DNA of 44,097 nucleotides, taken from Candidatus Moraniibacteriota bacterium (lineage in GTDB: Bacteria > Patescibacteriota > Minisyncoccia > Moranbacterales > UBA9337). The notes under the pieces are model-generated. The model saw nothing but the letters and a program-made list of their open reading frames with translations. It was not told the DNA's origin and searched no databases. This document shows, one piece after another, positions 1 through 40,088 of the stretch. The translations under genes were made by a program, and so were the position numbers. The first letter of the stretch is position 1, and each line of letters starts with the position of its first letter. The stretch lies in contig JBBQOS010000002.1 of assembly GCA_038331135.1 (NCBI GenBank), forward strand, positions 1 to 44,097, in the 5' to 3' direction.

Positions 1-870
1 AAACTTAGCATTGAATTTAGGAATAAATACTTTTAACAGAAATTCATTGGCTTTAGGTATAGTGGATATTTTGTTTAAACGTAATTCCTTAATTAATCTA
101 TCTTGTAATGTTTTAAAGAGTCTTTCTACTCGGCCTTTAGCTTGACTACTGTTAGCGTTGATAACTCCGATATTCAATTGTTGCATAGCTCTTTGAAATT
201 GAGTTAGAGTATCAGGATTTTCTTTAGCAAGTTTATGATTCATAGAATAGGTTGAGAACTTATCTACGTAGATTTCATAAGGTTTTTCATTGATTTTGAA
301 ATATTCTTGCCAGAAATTGAAGGTTGGTTCTACTCCTTCATGGATATCAAATTTAGCGTGAGTGATTTTACCGGTAGCATCATCTATTGAAGCGATTAGA
401 CAACATTTTGGAGCTCTGTCTTCAAACCAGTATTCATATGAGCCGTCGTATTGCTCTAGCTCTCCATAGCTTGCCCTGCGTTGTCTCCAAGAGCGATACT
501 CTTGTTTCTTTTTCTTTTTAGGTTTCCATAATTCTTCTTCTATCATTATCGCTCTAATTGTTTTTGGGTCTCTGATGATGTTGTGGATTTCTTCTAATTT
601 TTCAGTTGCAAAGGTTGGTCCAAAATCTGCATAATATCTGTGGATCAGTTTCTTGATTTTCTCTTTTTCCTTATTGGAGATTTTTCTTGGACTAGCTTTT
701 CCTCGGTTAGCATGGATCAGTCCTTTAATTCCATCCTTAGAGACTTTCTTTTTTAATCTTCGAATATGTCTAGTTGTAAGTCCAAGTATCTCACTAGCTT
801 CTGTGTCTTTAATTTCTTTTTTAATTGTTTTTTGGATGATGTCATAACGACTTACTTCTTTTTGACTCAT
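1..870 (-). CDS. DDE transposase, ISNCY-family-like, partial (C-terminus runs off the left window edge)
   Basis: Minus-strand frame with ATG at 870..868; checked triplet by triplet, no stop through position 1. Absent from the ORF track because it is open-ended. Translation MSQKEVSRYDIIQKTIKKEIKDTEASEILGLTTRHIRRLKKKVSKDGIKGLIHANRGK... is an HTH N-terminus, followed by an rve/DDE-like core (..IASIDDATGKI..YVDKFSTY..SSQAKGRVERLFKTLQDRL). I recognise this pattern from ISNCY-type transposases. Confidence 0.6.
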   Translation of the reverse strand, partial: MSQKEVSRYDIIQKTIKKEIKDTEASEILGLTTRHIRRLKKKVSKDGIKGLIHANRGKASPRKISNKEKEKIKKLIHRYYADFGPTFATEKLEEIHNIIRDPKTIRAIMIEEELWKPKKKKKQEYRSWRQRRASYGELEQYDGSYEYWFEDRAPKCCLIASIDDATGKITHAKFDIHEGVEPTFNFWQEYFKINEKPYEIYVDKFSTYSMNHKLAKENPDTLTQFQRAMQQLNIGVINANSSQAKGRVERLFKTLQDRLIKELRLNKISTIPKANEFLLKVFIPKFNAKF

Positions 871-985
871 GATAATGTATTTGTCCATTAGATTAATATT
901 AAGGATTAACCTAATATCTTATCTTATTAAAGCGGACATTTCTATTTCCCGCTAATAGGACATTATCATTTCCGTGTAACACAAA
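1..985 (-). mobile_element. Partial insertion sequence (transposase plus its 5'-proximal end); exact terminus uncertain
   Basis: Transposase ORF. Subterminal imperfect direct repeats ggacatttctatttccc (934-950) and ggacattatcatttccg (958-974) sit just beyond the start codon, as expected for transposase-binding sites near an IS end. The other end is outside the window. Confidence 0.4.
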
Positions 986-1112
986 ATATTTTGACCGTTT
1001 TTCATTCTTTCAATATCCGTCACAATCTCATCAATCGCGGTGCGGAGTTCCTATGCGTTGACCGCAAATGCAGTGGAGGATTCTTACGATTTCAAAAAAA
1101 GTGAAAATTGGA

Positions 1113-17833: not shown

Positions 17834-18004
17834 TTATTTCTTTTTTGTTTTTTTAGCTGTTGTTTTTTTAGCTACTTTTTTTACAGCTTTTTTAACTGTT
17901 TTTTTAGTTGCTTTTTTAGCTGTTTTTTTCTTAGCTACTTTTTTTACAACTTTTTTCACAGCTTTTTTAACTGTTTTTTTAGTTGCTTTTTTCTTTGTTG
18001 CCAT
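17834..18004 (-). CDS. Lysine/alanine-rich histone H1-like small basic protein (56 aa; not in the ORF track)
   Basis: ATG 18004..18002 to TAA 17836..17834, translated codon by codon: MATKKKATKKTVKKAVKKVVKKVAKKKTAKKATKKTVKKAVKKVAKKTTAKKTKKK. Has its own terminator and duplicated upstream promoters. The 68-aa plus-strand ORF is its poly-Phe antisense shadow. Confidence 0.6.
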   Translation of the reverse strand: MATKKKATKKTVKKAVKKVVKKVAKKKTAKKATKKTVKKAVKKVAKKTTAKKTKKK

Positions 18005-21466: not shown

Positions 21467-21648
21467 ATAAGAACTGAGCGGACTACTAGATATGGTGAGA
21501 TCATCTCTGGAATGCCATCTCTAAGGACTTCTGCTCAGCCACTCTTTACACTACCCCCCCCTAGTAAAAAATTTCTTGCTTTCCCTTACGGAAAGAATCA
21601 ATATCATTTGATACACAACAAGAAAATTTACTACGGGGGCTTTTTTTA
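21467..21648 (+). ncRNA. Candidate structured RNA antisense to the grpE-dnaK junction (about 180 nt)
   Basis: Promoter upstream. Hairpin 1 is closed by CTGAGC (21473-21478) and GCTCAG (21532-21537). Hairpin 2 has an approximately 20-bp stem cccccctagtaaaaaatttcttg (21555-21577) / caagaaaatttactacggggg (21618-21638), followed by cttttttt only on the plus strand. GC visibly above local background. The only ORF is a low-complexity 61 aa running into grpE. Confidence 0.3.
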
Positions 21649-22581
21649 TTCCACAATTACTCGAGAGGCACGAATCACCTTTTCTCCAATCTTGTAACCC
21701 CGCAAAATCACTTTCTTTATTTTATTTTTAAATTTCTTCTTCTCTTTGCATTTATCATCTAGACATTTCTCATCATGGCAACAGCTATCCGAGACTGCTT
21801 CACAATATTTAGTATCAAAATTATCTCCTTCTTTTAAATTAATTTCTTCCACCCCGTTTTCTGTCAGCACATTTTCCAGTTGTTTTTGGATATACATTAT
21901 TCCAGTCACCCACGGATTATCTTTTTGATCTTCGGGAATGTGTGCGGTAGAAGTTTGGAAATTATCAATTACGGGAATTATCTGCATTACGATATTTTCA
22001 GTCGCATAACGGATTCTATCTTTTTGACTTTCGGCTTGCATTTTTTTATAATTTTCAAATTCTGCTAAGCTTCTTTTCCAACCATCCAGCGCCATTTCCA
22101 TTTCCAGATATTTTTTGGCTGCCTTTATCGTTTCCATTTTTTCTTCTTCGAATCCATCACCTGTATTTAATTTATTTATCGCCTCATCAAAACTTAACCA
22201 CTCATACTCGCTATGCTCACGAGGATTCAATCTTATCTCACCTCCGTTGTAATAGACTATGAATCTCAAAGCCTTTAAGCTATCCAATTTTTCATGACCT
22301 TTTGGATATTCACTTATCCTAATAACTGCTCCGATTTCTATATTATCTAAACCTAATTCTTCTTTTATCTCTCTCTGAAGGGAATTATGAGATGTTTCTC
22401 CTTTTTCCATTCCCCCTCCGGGCAAATCATATTTAGAACTATTGGTTATTTCTTTATCGGCTCTTTTAAGCAGCAAAACTTTATTCTCTTTATCAACTAC
22501 AACTGCTTTAATCGTTAATTGCATCGGCCAACCTTTTCCAATCTCTATTTCAATTTCTTCTTTTTTATTTTCCTTTTTCAT
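21646..22581 (-). CDS. grpE: Nudix hydrolase-GrpE fusion protein
   Basis: 311 aa. Residues about 20-145 carry a Nudix box GGGMEKGETSHNSLQREIKEELGL. Residues about 160-311 are GrpE (WKRSLAEFENYKKMQAESQKD..IIPVIDNFQ..GDNFDTKY.EAV..ILRGYKIGEKVIRASRVIV) with a Cys-rich insert SDSCCHDEKCLDDKCKEKKKFKNK. Confidence 0.8.
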   Translation of the reverse strand: MKKENKKEEIEIEIGKGWPMQLTIKAVVVDKENKVLLLKRADKEITNSSKYDLPGGGMEKGETSHNSLQREIKEELGLDNIEIGAVIRISEYPKGHEKLDSLKALRFIVYYNGGEIRLNPREHSEYEWLSFDEAINKLNTGDGFEEEKMETIKAAKKYLEMEMALDGWKRSLAEFENYKKMQAESQKDRIRYATENIVMQIIPVIDNFQTSTAHIPEDQKDNPWVTGIMYIQKQLENVLTENGVEEINLKEGDNFDTKYCEAVSDSCCHDEKCLDDKCKEKKKFKNKIKKVILRGYKIGEKVIRASRVIVE

Positions 22582-22616
22582 AATTCATAATTCTTAATTC
22601 TTAATTCTTAATTCTA
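22582..22616 (-). repeat. Five tandem heptamers filling the hrcA-grpE spacer
   Basis: Plus strand AATTCAT AATTCTT AATTCTT AATTCTT AATTCTA starting 1 nt after the grpE start codon. The spacer is 46 nt in total. Confidence 0.9.
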
Positions 22617-22627
22617 TAAAACAAAAT

Positions 22628-23436: not shown

Positions 23437-23445
23437 ATTATAACA
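23437..23445 (-). promoter_or_regulatory. Extended -10 (TGtTATAAT) of the hrcA-grpE-dnaK operon
   Basis: Minus strand ttTGTTATAAT. The CIRCE right half sits where a -35 would be. Confidence 0.5.
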
Positions 23446-23450
23446 AAAAA

Positions 23451-23477
23451 TTAGCACTCGTCAAGTGCGAGTGCTAA
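23451..23477. promoter_or_regulatory. CIRCE operator (HrcA binding site)
   Basis: Perfect consensus TTAGCACTC-gtcaagtgc-GAGTGCTAA, 65 nt upstream of the hrcA start. Confidence 0.92.
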
Positions 23478-23542
23478 CTGATTACTATCAGCATCAGAAT
23501 ATCAACCTATTGAATTATATATACCTGCAAATAATAAACGCT

Positions 23543-24283
23543 TTAGATACCTGTTCTCCTTATCATCTGGGCAACCACCAACGCCTTAGCATGATGATCG
23601 CCGAATCTATTTATTTTTATCTCTTCTATTTCATCCCCATATCGTAATCTAAACGATATCCCAGTTGCTTCTTTTTTAATTCCTTCTATGCTTCCATTAA
23701 TTTCAGACGAATTGATTCCGAAATAAAGAACGGGCACTTTGGAATATTTTTTTAAACTTCTAACTTTTTCATTATCCCAATTTAAAATAAGTCTTCCTCC
23801 TTTTTTAACATTTTTTGCCAAATAAATATATTCACTTACCAATTTATCCATTCCTGAAAATGATTCTATATAACGCTGATTAATTTCCGTCACGATTGCT
23901 ACTTTTGGGTTTACCAATGAAAGCAAATAACGCATATCTCCTTTTTGCGCCACCCCCAATTCCAACACCAAATATTTAGGAAAATTATTTTGAAAAATTG
24001 ATTTAGCCGCACTCACAATAACAGGCAACCATCTCCGATAAGAATTATATCCACTCTCCATATTTAAAATCGCTAGAGGCAACCCAATTTCTGTATTAAA
24101 ATTTTTAGGATTAGCGCGAACGGTTTTTCCCTGAGCTTCCAAAACTCTTCTAATCTCGTCTCTCACAAAAGATTTATTTACACTTCCGCTGATGGCGATA
24201 ACGATTGGACGATGTACCCACAAAACTATTTTAACAATAATTTTAAGATAATATTGTAGTATAATTTTAAAAATTTTTTTCAT
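23543..24283 (-). CDS. Mur ligase family paralog: short (no C-terminal domain), with degenerate catalytic motifs
   Basis: 246 aa, collinear with the first ~245 residues of the MurF at 2486-3787, including the same hydrophobic insertion. P-loop is ISGSVNKS (GK replaced by NK). TEINQRYIE replaces TNISSSHLE. Ends where the C-terminal domain would begin. Confidence 0.6.
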   Translation of the reverse strand: MKKIFKIILQYYLKIIVKIVLWVHRPIVIAISGSVNKSFVRDEIRRVLEAQGKTVRANPKNFNTEIGLPLAILNMESGYNSYRRWLPVIVSAAKSIFQNNFPKYLVLELGVAQKGDMRYLLSLVNPKVAIVTEINQRYIESFSGMDKLVSEYIYLAKNVKKGGRLILNWDNEKVRSLKKYSKVPVLYFGINSSEINGSIEGIKKEATGISFRLRYGDEIEEIKINRFGDHHAKALVVAQMIRRTGI

Positions 24284-24448
24284 AAGGCAAGCATACTAGC
24301 ACGTTAGCATATCAACGTATTAACATTTTAGCATTAAAACAATTTAACAACATAGCCCTGTAATAATTTTATTCATTCACATATTTTCAAACTTCCAGAT
24401 TTCCAAATTCATACTTTACAAACCTTAGGAACCTTACAAGCTTTATAA
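24284..24448 (-). repeat. 165-nt spacer with 8-bp periodicity throughout (21 octamers including the start codon)
   Basis: Plus strand from 24281: CATAAGGC AAGCATAC TAGCACGT TAGCATAT CAACGTAT TAACATTT TAGCATTA AAACAATT TAACAACA TAGCCCTG TAATAATT ... TTCCAGAT TTCCAAAT TCATACTT TACAAACC TTAGGAAC CTTACAAG CTTTATAA. Confidence 0.8.
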
Positions 24449-25630
24449 CTATTTTAGAAACTTCTTCATTCTTCTAAATGATTCGTTGATATCTTTTTCA
24501 CTTCTGCCAAAACTCATTCGGATATGGTGCTCTCCGTTGGGCCCAAATGCTACCCCCGGCACTACTGCCACCTTGGTTTTTTCCAATAAATTCAAGGCAA
24601 ATTTCCAAGACAAACTTCCGCCGTGATCACTATCTACATAATCAACATTTTCTAACATTATTTTAGGAAAAACAAAATATGCACTCTCTGGTCTGACATA
24701 AGAAAAAACATGTGATAATTCATCTAAATGCTTGCAAATTAAATCTCTGCGCTGGCGATATTCTTGATTCATTTCCAATAAATCTTTATCTCCCATCTCC
24801 AAAGCTCCCATCGCTCCAAATTGAGAAATTACCGGCGCGCAAGTTACCAAAGAATCATGCACTTTTAAAATTTCCTTAACTACACTTTCATCACCATGCA
24901 AATACCCCACTCTCCATCCAGTCATCGCGTAAGATTTAGAAAAGCTAAATAGTCGAATCACTTTTTTTCTCAATTTAGGAATCTCAGCTAAACTAAATAT
25001 TTTTTGCTCCGGCTCAAAAAGAAAATCCTTATAAACTTCATCTGAAATTAAAAATAAATTATGCTCCTCCGCCAACTGTGCCAATCCCATCAACTGGTCT
25101 TTTGAATAAATTGTTCCGGTGGGATTATTGGGATTGCAATAAAAAATCGCTTTAGTTTTTGGCGTTATTGCTTCTTTAAATTTTTCCAAATCAAACGCCC
25201 AGCCTTTTTCTTCATCCAGCGAAACAAAAACAGGGGTGCAACCAGCTAGCGTTATTACTTCTCGATAAGAGGTATAAGTCGGTTGAGGAATAATAACCTC
25301 ATCGCCTGGATTCGTAAGTGCCAAAATGGTCGCCGTGATTCCCTCAATTGAACCGGCTGTAACTATAATTTCTTTTTCCCAATCATAAAACATATTACCC
25401 TGGGCCAATTTAATTTCAATTAACTCCCGAAGTTCGGAAATTCCCGGCGATAAAGAATATTTAGCCACCATCCCTTTTTTTAGGGCTAGCTCCACCCTCC
25501 TCTTAATACATTCTGGCGTATCAAAATTTGGTACACCTTGCGCTAGGGAAATTACATCCGGATATTTAGAAGCGCGCAATTCCATCTGCTTAATTACGGA
25601 GAGATTTAAATTTTTAGTCCGTTCAAACAT
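24449..25630 (-). CDS. Pyridoxal-phosphate-dependent aminotransferase, class I/II (aspartate/aromatic-type)
   Basis: 393 aa. NPNNPTG and SFSKSYAMTGWRVGY (PLP-lysine motif). Confidence 0.8.
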   Translation of the reverse strand: MFERTKNLNLSVIKQMELRASKYPDVISLAQGVPNFDTPECIKRRVELALKKGMVAKYSLSPGISELRELIEIKLAQGNMFYDWEKEIIVTAGSIEGITATILALTNPGDEVIIPQPTYTSYREVITLAGCTPVFVSLDEEKGWAFDLEKFKEAITPKTKAIFYCNPNNPTGTIYSKDQLMGLAQLAEEHNLFLISDEVYKDFLFEPEQKIFSLAEIPKLRKKVIRLFSFSKSYAMTGWRVGYLHGDESVVKEILKVHDSLVTCAPVISQFGAMGALEMGDKDLLEMNQEYRQRRDLICKHLDELSHVFSYVRPESAYFVFPKIMLENVDYVDSDHGGSLSWKFALNLLEKTKVAVVPGVAFGPNGEHHIRMSFGRSEKDINESFRRMKKFLK

Positions 25631-25731
25631 AGTGGCATTTTAGCAATTTAACATATTAGCACGTTAACATAAAAACAAATTAACATTAAGCTATGAAAAC
25701 AATTTCAACAGCTAGCACACCTACAACGTTC
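25631..25731 (-). repeat. Array of 13 octamers in exact register from the argS stop to the next ATG
   Basis: Coding strand after TAG: GAACGTTG TAGGTGTG CTAGCTGT TGAAATTG TTTTCATA GCTTAATG TTAATTTG TTTTTATG TTAACGTG CTAATATG TTAAATTG CTAAAATG CCACTATG(start). 101 nt + 3 = 104 = 13 x 8. Confidence 0.9.
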
Positions 25732-27456
25732 CTACATCCTCTTTACAGTTTCAATCCCCAATAATTCCAATCCATTTTTTAAAGTTATTTGCATCGCTTT
25801 TACCAATGCCAAGTTATTTTTAAAATCAGGGTTGGTAGCATCGAGAACTTTCGTCTGGGCATAAAAGGAGCTAAATTCAGAAGCGAGATTATAAAGATAA
25901 TTAGCTAAATGATGGGGCGAATAATCTTTTAAAGATTCTTCTATAGATGCTGGAAATTTTAGAATCATTTTTTCTACTTTGGGCGTTTCATTTTTTCTAT
26001 CTGTTGTTTCTGTCTCATTTTCAATTTTCAAATCCTGGGCATTATTTAAAATTGAATTAGTTCTAACAAGTGCATATTGGAGATAAGGTCCAGTGTCGCC
26101 TTCAAATGCGGTAGCTTTTTCCATATCAAAAACAATATTTCTTCCTGCACTGCATTTTAAAATAGAATATTTAAGCGCCCCTATTGCCACCTTCTCCGCT
26201 ATTTCATTTTTCTCCTCTTGCGAGAAATCTTGCTCTTTTATTTTTTCTAAAATTTTATTTTTCGCCAACTCGATCAAATCTTCGGCCAGTGGCACATTTC
26301 CAAAACGGGAAGACATTTTGACTCCCGAAAAAGTAAGTCTACCATGCTGTATATATTCACTTTTATCCGACCACTCTTTATTTATAATCTCAGCCGCTTT
26401 TTTTACCAATTTAAAATGCTCTTTTTGCTCCACGTCTGTAATGGTAATTGATTTATCGAATTTAAATTTATCGAATTTTATTTTTAAAAGTCCCATATCT
26501 TTAGCAAGATACGTCCCGAAACCTTGAGAATTTATAAAAACATTATCAAACAATCCATGTTCCGAACCAGGGAAAATTATTGCCCCCTCTGATTCTCTAA
26601 ATACATTGGGAATATTATTTTTAACAATTTCTTTGCCCACTTTCTCTGATTCTGACTCAAAAATTAAATCATCAAAAGTTGATCCTAGTCTTTTGGTTAT
26701 TTCCTTAAAATAACCCAGAGAAAGCTTTTGTCCCTTTTTATAAATCTCAAGTTCATCTGATTCTTCTTTTAAATAAAGTTTTTTATTAATACTATCAATC
26801 TCCTCTTTGACTTTTTCATTTTCTTTATATTCGCTGCTTCCAAAAACATAAGCTTCACCGATTTTTTCAATTGTCATTTCATTTTCCCATTTTTTTTCTT
26901 TTATCGCCCAGACAGTTTTGGCAATTCCGGGAGAAATATCCGATGGGAAAGATAACGTAATTAAACTAGCCATTCCTGATTTTTTTATAATCCTAACTAT
27001 GGATTCTCCAATTGAATTATTAACCAAGTGTCCCACATGAAACGGTTTAAATAAATTTGGAGACGAATGTTCAAAAATATAATTCTTATTTTCCAACTCT
27101 TTTGTCTCGCCCCATTTTTCACCTAAAACTAACACACTTTTAATTTCATGATTAAAATATTCTTTGGATAAATAAAAATTAATATAGCCAGGAGTAACCA
27201 CTTCTATCTTGTCCACATTCTCAATATATTTAGTTTCTAGTATTTTTGCAATTTCAACTGCTATCTCCACGGGGCTGGTTTTTAATTTACCTGCCAAAAT
27301 CATAGCAATGTTCGAAGACCAATCTCCAAATTTCGCATCTTTTGTATAATTTATTTCAAAAGTTAAATCTCCCAAATCGATATCTGCCCAATCTTTATTT
27401 CTTGAAATAATTTCTCCAATGACTTCCGTCACTTTGCTTTTTATAATTTCTTTCAT
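25732..27456 (-). CDS. argS: Arginine--tRNA ligase
   Basis: 574 aa. PFHVGHL (HIGH-type), KMSSRFGN (KMSKS-type), anticodon-binding C-terminus ending ..GIETVKRM. Confidence 0.9.
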   Translation of the reverse strand: MKEIIKSKVTEVIGEIISRNKDWADIDLGDLTFEINYTKDAKFGDWSSNIAMILAGKLKTSPVEIAVEIAKILETKYIENVDKIEVVTPGYINFYLSKEYFNHEIKSVLVLGEKWGETKELENKNYIFEHSSPNLFKPFHVGHLVNNSIGESIVRIIKKSGMASLITLSFPSDISPGIAKTVWAIKEKKWENEMTIEKIGEAYVFGSSEYKENEKVKEEIDSINKKLYLKEESDELEIYKKGQKLSLGYFKEITKRLGSTFDDLIFESESEKVGKEIVKNNIPNVFRESEGAIIFPGSEHGLFDNVFINSQGFGTYLAKDMGLLKIKFDKFKFDKSITITDVEQKEHFKLVKKAAEIINKEWSDKSEYIQHGRLTFSGVKMSSRFGNVPLAEDLIELAKNKILEKIKEQDFSQEEKNEIAEKVAIGALKYSILKCSAGRNIVFDMEKATAFEGDTGPYLQYALVRTNSILNNAQDLKIENETETTDRKNETPKVEKMILKFPASIEESLKDYSPHHLANYLYNLASEFSSFYAQTKVLDATNPDFKNNLALVKAMQITLKNGLELLGIETVKRM

Positions 27457-31692: not shown

Positions 31693-31702
31693 AGTCTATT
31701 GA

Positions 31703-31727
31703 GAATTTAGGAGGTTAGGAATTTGGG
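31703..31727 (+). repeat. Left inverted repeat of the four-helix-bundle cassette
   Basis: GAATTTAGG-N7-GAATTTGGG (units 16 bp apart), 10 nt upstream of the ATPase start. Confidence 0.65.
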
Positions 31728-31749
31728 GATATGAGAGTGAGTAGATAAA

Positions 31750-32130
31750 TTAAGATTTTAAGAATGTTTTTGTTTTAGATATAAACAAATTAAGAAGTTT
31801 ATGAGTGGAATTAATTCTTCTCAAAATTTCATCAAAATAATTTTTTGACAAATATCTTATGTCCCTAGCGATTAATATTTGATTTCTTAATTCAGAAATT
31901 GAACCTAAATATATATAATAAAATTGCAATTTTTCCTTATATCCCTTTCTGCCAAATCCTTCCGCCATATTTGAGGTGATAGAAACGGCAGATATTCTTA
32001 TTTAATTAGTAAGTCTATAGACCTCACTTTGTGGAAAACTATTTTTAATTTCATATATGCACACAATTATTTTGTGTCCTTCTTGTCAAACAATTAAATC
32101 TGTAAAAACTTTTATCTTTTCTCTTTTCAT
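31750..32130 (-). pseudogene. Four-helix-bundle protein gene (23S-IVS-protein family) with two in-frame stop codons
   Basis: Single frame from ATG 32130: MKREKIKVFTDLIV*QEGHKIIVCIYEIKNSFPQSEVYRLTN*IRISAVSITSNMAEGFGRKGYKEKLQFYYIYLGSISELRNQILIARDIRYL... TGA (32088..32086) lies at the conserved Trp of DL.VWQ. TAA (32004..32002) lies at the conserved Gln of L.sQirR. No indels. The track shows only the 72-aa tail. Confidence 0.7.
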
Positions 32131-32171
32131 ATTTATAATTTTCAAATTTAAATCATTAAAGTTCTTACATT

Positions 32172-32205
32172 CCTAAATTCACATATTCCTAAATTCTTAA
32201 ATTTC
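32172..32205 (-). repeat. Right inverted repeat of the cassette
   Basis: CCTAAATTC-N7-CCTAAATTC-TTAAATTTC; same 16-bp unit spacing as the left repeat, opposite orientation. Abuts the adaptor gene stop. Confidence 0.65.
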
Positions 32206-33221: not shown

Positions 33222-33312
33222 ATTTTATTAAGAATTATGAATCATGTATTATAAATAATATATTTTTATTGTTTATTGATTAGTTAACGAGTTAAAGAAT
33301 TGTGCCAGACGT

Positions 33313-33337
33313 GAATTTAAGAATTTAGGAATTTAGA
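33313..33337 (+). repeat. Three tandem GAATTTAR octamers
   Basis: GAATTTAA GAATTTAG GAATTTAG A, directly after the rnhA stop and about 92 nt upstream of the adaptor start. Same motif and orientation as 31703-31727. Confidence 0.75.
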
Positions 33338-33339
33338 TT

Positions 33340-34553: not shown

Positions 34554-34710
34554 ATTTTTTCGTGGTAAACGGAAATAGTTAATAAAATTTTTAAAGTTAA
34601 TCCTCAAACTTTTAATTTTTAGCTAATCTCCTCCCACAAATATATTTTAGTTAATTACATATTGTTCTAAAATCACATATTTTCGAATTCTTAACTTCAT
34701 AAATTCCCAA

Positions 34711-35127: not shown

Positions 35128-35226
35128 AATGATATAAATCTCTAATCTACTCAAACCTTTCACTAATTTTTTCTAATCCATTTGTGATTATTTGAGTTAA
35201 TCAGAGTCGATTCGTGATTTAAATAA

Positions 35227-35772
35227 TTATATTTTCTTAATTTGTAAAAAGTCCAATTCGACCGGAGTCTCTCGACCAAAGATTGAAACTGAAACCTTTA
35301 CTTTTCCTCTTTCTTCATCAATTTCTTTTACCTTTCCATCATGATCTTTAAATGGTCCATCGGTAATTTTAACTGATTCTCCCTCCTTGATATCCAATTT
35401 ATATTTTGGCTCAGATACTCCAATTCTCTTTTTGAGAGCCTTAACCTCCTCCGGGTCAATAGGGGTGGGAGTTGTGCCTAGTCCGATAAATCCTGTAACA
35501 TTGGGTGTGTTTCTAACCACATACCAAGAAGCGTCTGTTACAATCATATCCACTAGAACATATCCAGGATAAATTCTCTCTTCTATCGTTACTCGTTTAC
35601 CACTTTTAATCTTAATCTTTTTTTCTTTTGGAACAATCACATCAAAAATTAAATCCTGCATATCCATAGATTCAATTCTTTGCTTTAAGTTATAGGCTAC
35701 GTTATCTTCATAACCGGAATAAGTATGAAGCACATACCAAGCGCGACCATGATGTTGACTTTGTTTTGCCAT
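35227..35772 (-). CDS. nusG: Transcription termination/antitermination factor NusG
   Basis: 181 aa. WYVLHTYSGYEDNV NGN domain, C-terminal KOW (GESVKITDGPFKDHDGKVKEID). Confidence 0.9.
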   Translation of the reverse strand: MAKQSQHHGRAWYVLHTYSGYEDNVAYNLKQRIESMDMQDLIFDVIVPKEKKIKIKSGKRVTIEERIYPGYVLVDMIVTDASWYVVRNTPNVTGFIGLGTTPTPIDPEEVKALKKRIGVSEPKYKLDIKEGESVKITDGPFKDHDGKVKEIDEERGKVKVSVSIFGRETPVELDFLQIKKI

Positions 35773-35865
35773 ATTATTTAGTAATCAGTGACTAGTATTT
35801 AGTAACTGGTAAAAATTATTAATAAATTAAGAGATAGGTTCAAATATAATTTCAAATACTGTGAA

Positions 35866-36048
35866 CTAAATCACGAAATTCTTCAAAATTCCGCCAAACA
35901 GGTAATCTAAGCTTCCCAGAAACAAAGAAATTACCACGCTAACTGCAAGTATTATCAGGGTGTAGTTTAATGTCTGTTTTTTGGTAGGCCAATTAACTTT
36001 TAATAATTCTGCCTTTGCTTCTATGATAAAATCAAAAATTTTTTTCAT
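35866..36048 (-). CDS. secE: Preprotein translocase subunit SecE
   Basis: 60 aa. ELLKVNWPTKKQT followed by a single TM. Upstream of nusG. Confidence 0.8.
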   Translation of the reverse strand: MKKIFDFIIEAKAELLKVNWPTKKQTLNYTLIILAVSVVISLFLGSLDYLFGGILKNFVI

Positions 36049-36086
36049 TGATTTTTTTTAATTTTTATGGATGTTATTTAGCCTTT

Positions 36087-36110
36087 TTTAAAAAGCCCTT
36101 TGGGGCTTTT
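36087..36110. terminator. Bidirectional hairpin (aaaagccc-tttg-gggctttt)
   Basis: 8-bp stem with A/T runs on both sides, in the udg-secE spacer. Confidence 0.45.
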
Positions 36111-36353
36111 ACATTTATAAATATATAGCATAATGAGTAATTTGTCAAATGCGATTCCCTACGAAGTTACCTGCCTACTGGCAGGCAGGCGAATTTATAC
36201 AAAATTACTAATTTCACTATTTTTCACCCGTCATTGCGAGAGGAGTTTATAATTAAATAAAATCTATCCATCTCAATTTACATCATTCAATTAATTTATC
36301 TATTAGCATAACGCCAATCTAAAATTCATAAATCTTAAACCTTAAATCTTAAA

Positions 36354-36947: not shown

Positions 36948-37085
36948 TTGAACATTAAAGCAACTAAGTCAACAGTCATCAACGGTACTTCATTTTAAAG
37001 TAGCTAGTATTATGTATTGAGTATAAATTCTTAAATCATAAATAGTACATCTTAAATCTCAATAATCAATTCATTAAGTAAATAA

Positions 37086-37628: not shown

Positions 37629-37671
37629 ATTTTTCGTCTTAATATCTTATCACGCAACTCTTCTTAATTTA

Positions 37672-37680
37672 ATTTTAACA
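37672..37680 (-). promoter_or_regulatory. Extended -10 (TGtTAAAAT) upstream of the phosphoesterase gene
   Basis: Minus strand tgtaTGTTAAAATtaa, about 44 nt before the ATG. Confidence 0.4.
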
Positions 37681-37703
37681 TACAATAAAACAATTTTATA
37701 CTC

Positions 37704-37775
37704 TATTCTTAATCATTATTTTTAATCTATTCTTAATCTATTTTTAATCTATTTTTAATCGTTATTCTTAATCAT
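37704..37775 (-). repeat. Six iteron-like direct repeats (TATTYTTAATC) at 11-13 bp spacing
   Basis: TTAATC at 37709, 37722, 37733, 37744, 37755 and 37768. Minus strand reads GATTAAGAATA / GATTAAAAATA. Confidence 0.85.
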
Positions 37776-37794
37776 CACCATTAATAACATTTAC

Positions 37795-37852
37795 ACTAAC
37801 CAATACTTCTCAAATTTGTGCATATGCACAAATTTGAGAAGTATTGGTTAGT
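37795..37852. repeat. 58-bp perfect palindrome
   Basis: actaaccaatacttctcaaatttgtgcat|atgcacaaatttgagaagtattggttagt: 29-bp arms, no spacer, no mismatch. Confidence 0.95.
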
Positions 37853-37892
37853 TTAATAAAAAAATTAAAAATACAATATTTTTTAGATATTT

Positions 37893-38675: not shown

Positions 38676-39512
38676 CTAGCAGCTATCCCGCATTACCCTT
38701 AGTAATTTAATATCTTCCATCACCCCATCGTGCTTGGTTTCTAAAATCATATCGATTTTGTTTTTCTGGGCGAAAACTATTATTTTTTTAAAAACTTCCA
38801 AACCAATTAAGCCTTGGCCAATATGAGCATGTCTATCTTTATTGGAGCCACATTCTGTCAGACTATCGTTAGCATGAATTAATTTAATATTTTTTAAACC
38901 AATTTCCTTATCTATTCTTAAGGCGGTTTTATCAAAATCTGTCCAATCATAGCCTGAAGCAAAACTATGCTGAGTGTCCAAACAAATTCCTGCGATATTT
39001 TTATTTTTTACTTTTTTTATAATATGCGCTAACTCTTTTAAATCATCTCCAATTATCGATCCGGCACCCGCACTATTTTCTAAAAGTAATTTAGCACTTC
39101 CATTATAATCTTTCAAAGTTTTAATCAACATTTCAACCACTTTTTCTCTCCCCGCTTTCTCCCCCAAATCTTTGGCTGAACCTAGATGCGTCATTACATA
39201 TTTAGCTCCCAATAAACTAGCTCGCGCCAATTCTTCCTTAATAGCATTTACTGAGCCATAGCGGATACGGTTATCGGCTGAAGCAAAATTGATATAATAA
39301 GGGGAATGAATATAGACAGCTTTTAATTTGTATTTTTTAGCTTGTAGTTTGAACTCTGCTACTGTGGCAGGAGTAAGTTCGGGAGTTTTGCCTCCTTGCG
39401 GAGAACGCGAAAAAATCTGCATCACTTCGCAACCCAAATCATACGCTCGCTCTGGCGCATTAAAAACTCCCCCCGCAATTGACACATGGCAACCTATTTT
39501 CATATTTTTCAT
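38676..39512 (-). CDS. nfo: Deoxyribonuclease IV (endonuclease IV)
   Basis: 278 aa TIM-barrel. IGCHVSIAGG, YIHSPYYINF, HLGS, DTQHSFASG, DRHAHIGQG. Confidence 0.9.
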   Translation of the reverse strand: MKNMKIGCHVSIAGGVFNAPERAYDLGCEVMQIFSRSPQGGKTPELTPATVAEFKLQAKKYKLKAVYIHSPYYINFASADNRIRYGSVNAIKEELARASLLGAKYVMTHLGSAKDLGEKAGREKVVEMLIKTLKDYNGSAKLLLENSAGAGSIIGDDLKELAHIIKKVKNKNIAGICLDTQHSFASGYDWTDFDKTALRIDKEIGLKNIKLIHANDSLTECGSNKDRHAHIGQGLIGLEVFKKIIVFAQKNKIDMILETKHDGVMEDIKLLRVMRDSC

Positions 39513-39552
39513 TTTAACATTTTAGCAATCTAGCATATTGGAATTTTAACAT
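39513..39552 (-). repeat. Five octamers abutting the nfo start codon
   Basis: Plus TTTAACAT TTTAGCAA TCTAGCAT ATTGGAAT TTTAACAT. Coding strand ATGTTAAA ATTCCAAT ATGCTAGA TTGCTAAA ATGTTAAA ATG. Confidence 0.85.
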
Positions 39553-39675: not shown

Positions 39676-39704
39676 TTGACTTTTACTAAAAATTGTAGTA
39701 TTAT
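39676..39704 (+). promoter_or_regulatory. Sigma70-type promoter TTGACT-17-TATTAT
   Basis: TTGACT 39676-39681, 17-nt spacer, TATTAT 39699-39704. Confidence 0.6.
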
Positions 39705-39753
39705 CATTTGGGTTTACGTTACAACAATCAACCTCAACAAAGGGGAGGGTACC

Positions 39754-39951
39754 ATGACACCTCAACAGCAACAAATATCCCAATTTACCAAGGATGGGGA
39801 GATCCTTGCCACGGTGCACGCCTTAGCCCAAAAACTGGAACGCAAGCTTCAGGCAGGGAATTTTTGGAGCATTGAAGAGCTCCAAAAGATAATAACCAAA
39901 ACCCAGGAAGAAATCGAAGCTGTAAAAAAGGTGAATTCCTTATATGTCTAG
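39754..39951 (+). CDS. Hypothetical 65-aa protein in a locally GC-enriched island
   Basis: ATG at 39754 preceded by aaaGGGGAGGGtacc. MTPQQQQISQFTKDGEILATVHALAQKLERKLQAGNFWSIEELQKIITKTQEEIEAVKKVNSLYV. Own promoter and terminator. The track start at 39676 overlaps the promoter. Confidence 0.5.
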   Translation: MTPQQQQISQFTKDGEILATVHALAQKLERKLQAGNFWSIEELQKIITKTQEEIEAVKKVNSLYV

Positions 39952-40012: not shown

Positions 40013-40042
40013 ATTACAAATTTTAAAATATTCTTAATCACA

Positions 40043-40086
40043 CTTTTAACAACTTGAACATTTGCAACATTTTTAACATTTTTAAC
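40043..40086 (-). repeat. Five tandem 9-mers (TTTTTAACA family) abutting the nrnA stop
   Basis: Plus ttttaaca acttgaaca tttgcaaca tttttaaca tttttaaca. Coding strand TGTTAAAAA TGTTAAAAA TGTTGCAAA TGTTCAAGT TGTTAAAA. Confidence 0.8.
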
Positions 40087-40088
40087 AA

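Follow-up and report, generated by a model that had tools for sequence, protein, structure and literature searches.

The argS-Aminotransferase Spacer

The window analysed here comprises 44,097 nucleotides (nt) of contig JBBQOS010000002.1 (assembly GCA_038331135.1) from a Candidatus Moraniibacteriota bacterium, a member of the candidate phyla radiation (CPR, Patescibacteria). On its minus strand argS, the gene for arginyl-tRNA synthetase (25732..27456 in the list of open reading frames (ORFs); 574 amino acids (aa); Pfam Arg_tRNA_synt_N, tRNA-synt_1d and DALR_1), is followed by a gene for a class I/II aminotransferase (24449..25630; 393 aa; Pfam Aminotran_1_2). The argS stop codon TAG (25734-25732) and the aminotransferase start codon ATG (25630-25628) are separated by 101 nt (25631-25731), again read on the minus strand. 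This spacer is the subject of the present report. It is a degenerate array of octamers, and its copy next to the ATG is a candidate promoter for a leaderless messenger RNA. Relatives of ArgS at 75-81% identity are found in Candidatus Moranbacteria/Moraniibacteriota and in metagenome-assembled genomes of the Parcubacteria group, and the nearest relatives of the aminotransferase are Moranbacteria as well. The start codon of the aminotransferase is secure because the N-terminus MFERTKNL, or a close variant of it, is shared by about 30 orthologues and the sequences diverge at once upstream; similarity ends right ahead of the ATG.

From TAG to ATG the minus strand splits exactly into the 13 octamers which an earlier note on this DNA had described, and 11 of the 13 end in TG. 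The exact split notwithstanding, only units 6-12 (25636..25691, minus strand) form a clean array, as judged by Tandem Repeats Finder (TRF), by autocorrelation and by in-phase TG dinucleotides, with a higher-order period of 16 nt. Units 1-5 (GAACGTTG TAGGTGTG CTAGCTGT TGAAATTG TTTTCATA; 25692..25731, minus strand) are a weaker, C-poor sub-array next to the stop codon. They align with the sequence that follows the argS stop codon in L002 and L004, with a different number of units (L-numbers, e.g., L002-L045, denote the related loci used for comparison). The consensus proposed in the note, YTAAnnTG, corresponds to TGYTAAnn in the register used here; it fits only 5/13 units.

The 101 nt contain little else that is familiar. 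Rfam yielded no match at gathering score for the whole window, nor at E <= 1 for positions 25550-25800, and the fold of the spacer RNA is not significant (z = -1.67). A structured RNA element, i.e., a riboswitch, a T-box or a leader, was rejected on these results. Neither a two-hexamer sigma-70 promoter with canonical -35 and -10 boxes nor an intrinsic terminator was detected inside the spacer. GGAG and GAGG are absent from it; thus, the aminotransferase has no Shine-Dalgarno (SD) sequence.

A Tandem Repeat of Eight Nucleotides

The autocorrelation of the spacer at lags 8, 16 and 24 gives z-values of 3.2, 4.4 and 3.9 against 5000 dinucleotide shuffles, and just 2 of these 5000 match the maximum observed over lags 2-24. 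At a period of 8, TG leads the in-phase dinucleotides with 10/12; shuffled sequences reach a mean of 5.9 and a maximum of 9, and none of 2000 attains 10. TRF reports a period of 16 with 3.2 copies and 77% matches at 25636-25686. Units 9-10 and units 11-12 represent a 16-nt duplication in the head-to-tail arrangement of a slippage repeat. The spacer is a genuine degenerate 8-nt tandem repeat beyond the chance regularity of AT-rich DNA. The periodicity surpasses that of shuffled sequence, which was one of the comparisons on which the earlier note had let its case depend. Only the local phasing is unusual: a global excess of YTAAnnTG is absent, with 73 occurrences in the window versus 92 expected.

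The unit combines a stop triplet with a start triplet, and the note had assigned to each ATG an ORF of 4 codons which ends 1 nt before the next start. This is correct for two of the four ATGs, those of units 8 and 10. The respective mini-ORFs, both on the minus strand, are ATG TTA ACG TGC TAA (MLTC*, 25656..25670) and ATG TTA AAT TGC TAA (MLNC*, 25640..25654), and they are a consequence of the 16-nt unit. The ORF that opens in unit 6 has 12 codons, and that of unit 12 has 10 codons and crosses the real start codon out of frame. An M-L-x-C* reading recurs in every well-formed array of this kind (L037, L040). The five unit junctions said to read TGnTAnnnT do so in the sequence.

The Proximal Element and the Geometry of the Start Codon

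The copy nearest to the ATG, TGCTAAAAT (25637..25645, minus strand), is a candidate -35-less promoter. Its hexamer TAAAAT (25642-25637) agrees with the TATAAT consensus at 5/6 positions and retains the T at -12, the A at -11 and the T at -7, which mark an extended -10 hexamer. One base upstream of the hexamer, at -15/-14, is the TG of an extended -10 box (element read 25645-25637). A discriminator of 6 nt, GCCACT (25631..25636, minus strand), connects the hexamer to the start codon. The hexamers of the upstream units match TATAAT at 3-4/6 positions only. This weakens the idea of stacked promoters put forward in the note since a good hexamer is present only in the last unit. As read from the sequence, the hexamers located 16-18 nt upstream of the proximal -10 match TTGACA at no more than one position, i.e., there is no -35 box. 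Array units were also considered as -35 boxes for the proximal -10 and discarded: the spacers come to 11 or 19 nt, and the best hexamer is TTAACG at 19 nt.

Sigma-70 initiation favours a pyrimidine at -1 and a purine at +1. The spacer has T at -1 and A at +1 and fits this rule. With a distance of 6 nt between hexamer and ATG, transcription would start on the A of the start codon. The aminotransferase also has the AUG start and the lack of an SD sequence that characterize leaderless genes.

The start-proximal region was surveyed from -20 to -1 in about 290 genes of the window and the related loci. SD cores (GGAG/GAGG at -18..-6) are present in 16 of 191 genes of the clade. A few genes carry very strong SD sequences, e.g., AAGGAGGGGAGG before 30913. 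The start context is rich in A from -2 to -7, and a T occupies -1 in 69% of 163 clade genes and in 56% of genes from more distant relatives. TAnAAT most often lies 6 nt ahead of the ATG (7 cases versus a background of 1.4, P = 6e-4); distances of 5-9 nt sum up to 17 versus 6.9 expected (P = 8e-4). The motif TGnTAnAAT occurs in spacers 31 times in sense and 3 times in antisense orientation. Among the candidate two-hexamer promoters of the clade, 12/36 have a TG at -15/-14, mostly as TGT or TGC; the hrcA promoter of the window is one of them.

The combination TGCTAAAAT-N6-ATG is found twice in the window, at called gene starts in both cases, while 0.02 occurrences are expected. The second is ahead of nfo (39512). 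Both are exact as the note had stated, yet the conserved start of nfo is probably the second ATG at 39503. A similar qualification applies to the "perfect register" of array and start codon. It is true here, but it is an arithmetic result of the 6-nt spacing because the distance from the TG of the box to the TG of the ATG amounts to 16 nt, i.e., two units; nfo keeps a spacing of 7 nt (N7) and a Mur-ligase-domain gene one of 9 nt (N9).

Tandem Arrays Throughout the Clade

For the wider analysis the window and 28 non-redundant related loci together supplied 286 spacers (59 kb). Genes were called with a simple home-made ORF picker; the enrichment statistics draw on some 160 genes and include orthologous loci, which are not independent samples. 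TRF detects 96 arrays in these spacers versus about 14 in dinucleotide shuffles, an approximately seven-fold excess. The periods peak at 7 (36 arrays), 8 (21 arrays) and 9 nt (13 arrays). In co-directional spacers 47 of 69 arrays are located within 12 nt of a gene end; at random 23.6 are expected.

Four unit families are recurrent: F1 (GAATTAW), F2 (GAATTTAR), F3 (AGTTTATAA) and F4 (TGYTAAnn), to which the array of the argS-aminotransferase spacer belongs. In the window, F4 arrays also adjoin the Mur-ligase-domain gene and nfo. According to the note, arrays equally common in both orientations and away from promoters would refute a function. The F4 arrays behave otherwise: in 29 de-duplicated sequences they are oriented 10 sense to 1 antisense, and 8 are start-proximal versus 2 stop-proximal. 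The families F1-F3 differ: 17 arrays are sense and 6 antisense, and of the sense arrays 13 lie near a stop and 4 near a start codon (Fisher p = 0.007 against F4). In-phase pairs TGYTAAnnTGYTAA in the 10 closest sequences (about 204 kb) number 13 in sense and 0 in antisense orientation in co-directional spacers, and 0 in 162 kb of coding sequence. With all 29 sequences included, 13 pairs are sense and 1 is antisense in spacers, and coding sequence contains 2. By our own calculation about 0.1 pairs are expected from base composition.

A logo was derived from 48 F4 units, extracted in phase from eight arrays. The counts are T47 G47 Y46 T47 A38 A36, and positions 7 and 8 are free. Across the unit junction the logo reads TGnTAAnnT, that is, TG, a variable -13, T at -12, A at -11 and T at -7, with -9 and -8 least constrained. 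Judged by its conserved positions, the F4 logo carries its information where an extended -10 box does, and the 8-nt period reads as a 9-nt extended -10-like element overlapped by one base.

The other degenerate families of 7-9 nt (GAATTAW, GAATTTAR, AGTTTATAA, GATTAAAAATA and TGTTAAAAA) occur in most spacers, mostly in sense orientation and starting no more than about 10 nt past the stop codon of the upstream gene. In the window they occupy 22582-22627, 24360-24448, 31693-32204, 33222-33339 and 34608-34710, further 35773-36353, 36948-37085, 37629-37892 and 40040-40087, and they are also present in L002-L045. The hrcA-grpE spacer (46 nt, with four copies of GAATTAA) is almost identical in the window and in L018. 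Base composition shows G > C at both spacer ends. A trend toward C-poor arrays after stop codons and G-free arrays before start codons was marginal (25:7 versus 15:13, Fisher p = 0.058) and is not used as evidence.

Inside TGYTAAnn arrays a perfect palindrome of 14 nt is found, CCGCCAGCTGGCGG at L003:6485, L003:14141 and L007:5562, and CCGCCGGCTGGCGG at L042:1279. It is always preceded by GCTAAT and followed by AGYTAA, and the proximal -10-like box comes shortly after it; the genes and genomes concerned differ from case to case. An operator function is conceivable, as is a very small mobile element of palindromic sequence.

Conservation Ahead of Three Genes

The nearest relative, L037, shares 92% aa identity in the aminotransferase. 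Its array reads TGCTAAAA TGTTAATA TGCTAACA TGCTAATA TGCTAACG TGTTAATA TGACACT, followed directly by ATG. This is an F4 array in the register of the window, with TGTTAATAT-N6-ATG at its end and with units apparently offset by 16 nt, i.e., two units. The comparison of orthologous spacers suggested in the note thus finds array, register and N6 spacing kept in L037, whereas other aminotransferase orthologues carry arrays devoid of TG, and the orthologous spacers are not alignable overall. A same-strain comparison was possible with L036, a single further assembly: it has 2 mismatches in 5772 nt, and the spacer is identical.

A comparison of the spacer with L018 (9089-10000), L003, L006 and L038 showed that several relatives, among them L018, L003 and L006, have a gene for a 201-aa protein (MTKYILNSG...) between argS and the aminotransferase gene; it is missing in the window, L002 and L011. 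The TGYTAAnn array ahead of this gene in L018 looks like the spacer array of the window. A derivation of the start-proximal array of the window from the array of the 201-aa gene (L018, L003, L006) is plausible by alignment. It is not claimed because F4 arrays are alike everywhere.

The second F4 array of the window (24284..24358, minus strand) adjoins the Mur-ligase-domain gene (23543-24283) as TGCTAGTAT-N9-ATG. Array and proximal TGYTAnnnT at N9 (N8 in L002) are present in the window and in seven relatives with 65-82% aa identity (L007, L003/L008, which are one genome, L037, L009, L010 and L002). The proximal element is AGTTAAAAT in L003/L008. The number of units varies between 1 and 9 among these orthologues.

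The third F4 array (39503..39551, minus strand) adjoins nfo and contains TGCTAAAAT-N6-ATG (39512) as well as TGTTAAAAT-N7-ATG (39503). The ATG at 39512 is the start of the longest ORF and was the choice of the note. In L040, L041, L043 and L044/45 this codon is GTG. Six relatives of nfo at 81-84% identity begin with MKIGCHV, which corresponds to the second ATG of the window at 39503, and most of the 120 homologues listed have 273-275 aa. The start at 39512 is probably wrong and the true one probably lies 9 nt downstream at 39503. The nfo relatives all have F4 arrays, with 3-11 units. The proximal element is at N7 in the window, L040, L041, L043 and L044/45. In L043 it has lost its TG, which is gone from two units of that array; L042 differs in having AGTTAATAT 6 nt (N6) ahead of an ATG located further upstream.

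An intrinsic terminator (-18.7 kcal/mol, z = -4.25) is located upstream of nfo. Between it and the array is a small ORF on the plus strand (39676-39951, about 65 aa from its ATG, MTPQQQQISQF...) with a strong SD sequence, GGGGAGGG. Behind a terminator and an ORF of the opposite strand, nfo needs a promoter of its own. L040-L045 hold an ORF of 59-84 aa at the position of this small ORF.

Taken by gene, the spacing to the ATG is specific (N6, N7, N9) and conserved. The variation in copy number among orthologues (Mur ligase 1-9, nfo 3-11, window and L037 offset by two units) is what is to be expected of slippage repeats.

A Leaderless Promoter Built by Slippage?

The reading we prefer, with a probability of roughly 45%, is as follows. 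An extended -10-like octamer, TGYTAAnn, would have been multiplied head-to-tail by slippage-type tandem duplication, with steps of 16 nt still visible. Each unit plus the first T of the following one would then constitute an extended -10 box (TGnTAnnnT). TGCTAAAAT, as the sole copy with a strong hexamer and 6 nt ahead of the ATG, would act as a -35-less sigma-70 promoter. Transcription would begin at the A of the aminotransferase ATG and produce a leaderless mRNA, in a bacterium whose genes seldom carry SD sequences. The upstream copies would be paralogues of the proximal element; they may be redundant, or they may offer weak auxiliary registers for RNA polymerase binding. The promoter in the array would add to possible read-through from a conserved promoter upstream of a 208-aa gene (28152-28124). 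Binding of RNA polymerase, the transcription start at the ATG, leaderless translation and any role of the upstream copies are inferred from sequence. Of the four possibilities raised in the earlier note, an extended -10 promoter of a leaderless gene is best supported, considering the logo, the lack of a two-hexamer promoter, the rarity of SD sites, the peak at 6 nt and L037.

Several observations weigh against this proposal. An A at -11 is present in just 79% of the array units, and most copies are probably not functional promoters in view of poor hexamers (3-4/6) and the loss of TG in L043. The aminotransferase orthologues of L018, L002 and L039 carry G-free, TG-less CTAAnnAA arrays that touch the ATG; in L007/L008 the array is TAATTCA, again G-free and without TG, and in L038 it is a mosaic. 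Because close orthologues have such TG-less arrays, the promoter is not a conserved property of the aminotransferase gene. "Some short repeat before an SD-less ATG" appears to be a more general feature than the promoter-like family, and TG-less arrays at the same ATG keep an explanation at the RNA level alive. An RNA element which binds ribosomes would equally be expected to keep a distance of 6-9 nt to the ATG. About 100 nt upstream of nfo a weak two-hexamer site (39634-39605, 9/12 matches) is an alternative promoter. Nearly all genes are on one strand; consequently, gene orientation is confounded with strand composition and direction of replication. Finally, the enrichment statistics are limited by the gene caller, the number of genes and the relatedness of the loci as described above.

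The RNA-level alternative, which we rate as rather unlikely, places the array within an argS-aminotransferase mRNA in which unstructured UGYUAA repeats would load ribosomes independently of an SD sequence or bind a regulator. It is in line with the passage from argS to the aminotransferase without a terminator, with rare SD sites and an A-rich start context with T at -1, with the insignificant structure of the spacer RNA and with a distance to the ATG that is in the range typical of ribosome-binding sites (RBS). The orthologues which place different short arrays against the same ATG also suit it, and forward repeats ending 1 nt before start codons have a precedent in the TAACTGA repeats of Beggiatoaceae (PMC4679880). 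It has to contend with the fact that the conserved T, G, T and A match an extended -10 box, with the sense bias of TGnTAnAAT and with the nfo array, where a promoter must be near; a candidate binding partner was not identified. More doubtful is that the array is a neutral by-product, i.e., slippage DNA of an AT-rich genome prone to frequent short tandem duplication, in which promoter-, start- and stop-like features arise from the unit by chance. As to its origin, slippage as suggested by the note is supported by the variation from 1 to 11 units among orthologues, some of them decayed. The excess of TRF arrays over shuffled spacers, the great diversity of units with periods of 7, 8 and 9 nt and the unalignable aminotransferase spacers would fit as well. 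Neutral decay, on the other hand, leaves the persistence of the arrays unexplained: T1, G2 and T4 reach 98% invariance, in contrast to the free positions 7-8, the arrays are oriented and start-proximal, gene-specific spacing to the ATG is kept across 65-92% aa identity, in-phase pairs are absent from the coding sequence of the closest set, and arrays crowd within 12 nt of gene ends at twice the random expectation.

It seems improbable that the array binds a protein, with TGYTAA direct repeats serving a clade-specific regulator, a nucleoid protein or a single-strand-binding factor. With a spacing of 8 bp, successive units would be rotated by about 274 degrees and face different sides of B-DNA, whereas known direct-repeat regulators use 10-11 bp. 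The downstream genes have unrelated housekeeping functions, and no candidate protein was found. For a protein speak the conserved core hexamer, the recurrence of arrays ahead of particular genes (aminotransferase, Mur ligase, nfo and the 201-aa gene) and the palindrome CCGCCAGCTGGCGG, which in arrays of L003, L007 and L042 occupies an operator-like place upstream of the proximal box. Least probable by far is the termination-reinitiation relay of the earlier note, in which ribosomes leaving argS would hop via 4-codon mini-ORFs (ATG YTA Ann TGY TAA) to the aminotransferase ATG. Two consecutive MLxC* mini-ORFs, each with the next ATG 1 nt behind it, and the same frame logic in the arrays of L037 and nfo are compatible with such a relay. 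But the first ATG is 46 nt past the argS stop codon and opens a mini-ORF of 12 codons, and the last mini-ORF, in a different frame, runs past the real ATG, so that the chain would not bring ribosomes to it as translational coupling demands. In addition, 8/48 units have a T at position 6 and hence no stop codon, arrays exist where no upstream ORF is translated, e.g., at nfo behind its terminator, and the mini-ORFs are an arithmetic outcome of the unit sequence.

Comparison with Known Systems

Extended -10 (TGn) sigma-70 promoters without a -35 box which drive leaderless mRNAs have been mapped in Mycobacterium, Streptomyces and Deinococcus. Such mapping was reportedly carried out by Cortes and coworkers in 2013, a study cited in PMC12641261. 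The spacer resembles them in having TG one base before TAnnnT, no usable -35, a hexamer 6 nt before the ATG, no SD sequence, a pyrimidine at -1 and a purine at +1. Unlike in these promoters, the element of the window is repeated at least six times head-to-tail with an overlap of one base and a variable copy number, the host belongs to the CPR/Patescibacteria, and the geometry is read from the DNA sequence.

In heterocystous cyanobacteria the short tandemly repeated repetitive (STRR) heptamers comprise a few 7-nt tandem families which are spread over many intergenic regions; their function is unknown. The arrays of the present clade are likewise short tandem families over many intergenic regions, but STRR have other sequences and are not known to be linked to start codons or to -10-like motifs. 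In the phase-variable promoters of contingency loci in Neisseria and Haemophilus, slippage in tetranucleotide or dinucleotide tracts retunes expression. Common to both are tandem repeats in the promoter region with a copy number altered by slippage. Contingency loci differ by perfect, hypervariable repeats and by surface or virulence genes, whereas the units of the window are degenerate, adjoin housekeeping genes and are unchanged in L036.

Another comparable group is formed by the TAACTGA heptamers. These direct repeats occur ahead of start codons in Beggiatoaceae, cyanobacteria and Bacteroidetes (MacGregor, 2015; PMC4679880). They come in 2-6+ copies, mostly intergenic and forward, near RBS-less starts at many loci, and have no proven function (PMC4679880). 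F4 arrays are forward-oriented too and end a few nt from RBS-less starts at many loci. They differ in that the unit TGYTAAnn has 8 nt, is degenerate rather than exact and is -10-like, and in that the clade possesses several other unit families with differing positional preferences. Heptamer arrays of ACTAGTT/ACTGATT, one base from the published TAACTGA, are present at 35164-35226 and 35773-35815; they adjoin the ATG of a nusG-like gene (35227-35772) and are conserved in L002 and L006.

Literature searches turned up no account specific to CPR of leaderless or SD-independent initiation or of such intergenic repeats; leaderless translation is mentioned in PMC12641178 only for YchF. The components, i.e., extended -10 promoters, leaderless mRNAs and start-proximal direct repeats, are known. 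A description of overlapped tandem -10-like arrays conserved ahead of housekeeping genes in a CPR lineage was not found in the literature.

Other Features of the Window

A controlling inverted repeat of chaperone expression (CIRCE operator, TTAGCACTC-N9-GAGTGCTAA) at 23437-23479 overlaps the strong promoter TTGACG-N16-(TGT)TATAAT upstream of hrcA. This arrangement is conserved in L018, L037, L039, L002, L003, L004 and L006. At 21646-22581 (minus strand) GrpE is preceded by an N-terminal NUDIX domain, an unusual fusion (Pfam NUDIX 22-137, GrpE 147-310). A tandem-repetitive coding stretch at 17845-17995 (minus strand) specifies a basic protein of 57 aa, rich in Lys and Ala (MATKKKATKKTVKKAVKK...), with a composition like histone H1. 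The long ORF at 1-1039 (minus strand) is cut by the left edge of the window; its N-terminal part, MSQKEVSRYDIIQKTIKKEIKDTEASEILGLTTRHIRRLKKK..., looks like a transposase or integrase with a helix-turn-helix domain.

Implications

Transcription and translation starts of CPR/Patescibacteria are almost unknown, and few of these organisms have been cultivated. As a tentative and rather doubtful generalization, a small set of tandem arrays of 7-9 nt, with family-specific position and orientation, may serve Moranbacteria and possibly further Parcubacteria as punctuation of their genes. TGYTAAnn arrays would then be multi-register, -35-less leaderless promoters tuned by slippage, and GAATTAW, GAATTTAR and AGTTTATAA would mark the region behind stop codons. 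If true, this would be a previously undescribed, repeat-based punctuation of transcription and translation in bacteria which largely dispense with SD initiation. Extended -10 promoters without -35 boxes, positioned 6-9 nt before ATGs, would give rise to leaderless or near-leaderless mRNAs; such promoters would be built and remodelled via slippage of 8 or 16 nt, with SD sites seldom used. Gene calling and the choice of start codons in thousands of metagenome-assembled genomes would be affected, as exemplified by the start of nfo. The arrays also offer defined sequences to be looked for in metatranscriptomes or assayed in vitro with the RNA polymerase of Escherichia coli. Should they be neutral, they would still testify to an unusually strong slippage regime of 7-9 nt that shapes most spacers of the clade. 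Should they be promoters, they would reveal a simple path to the birth and tuning of promoters in reduced genomes.

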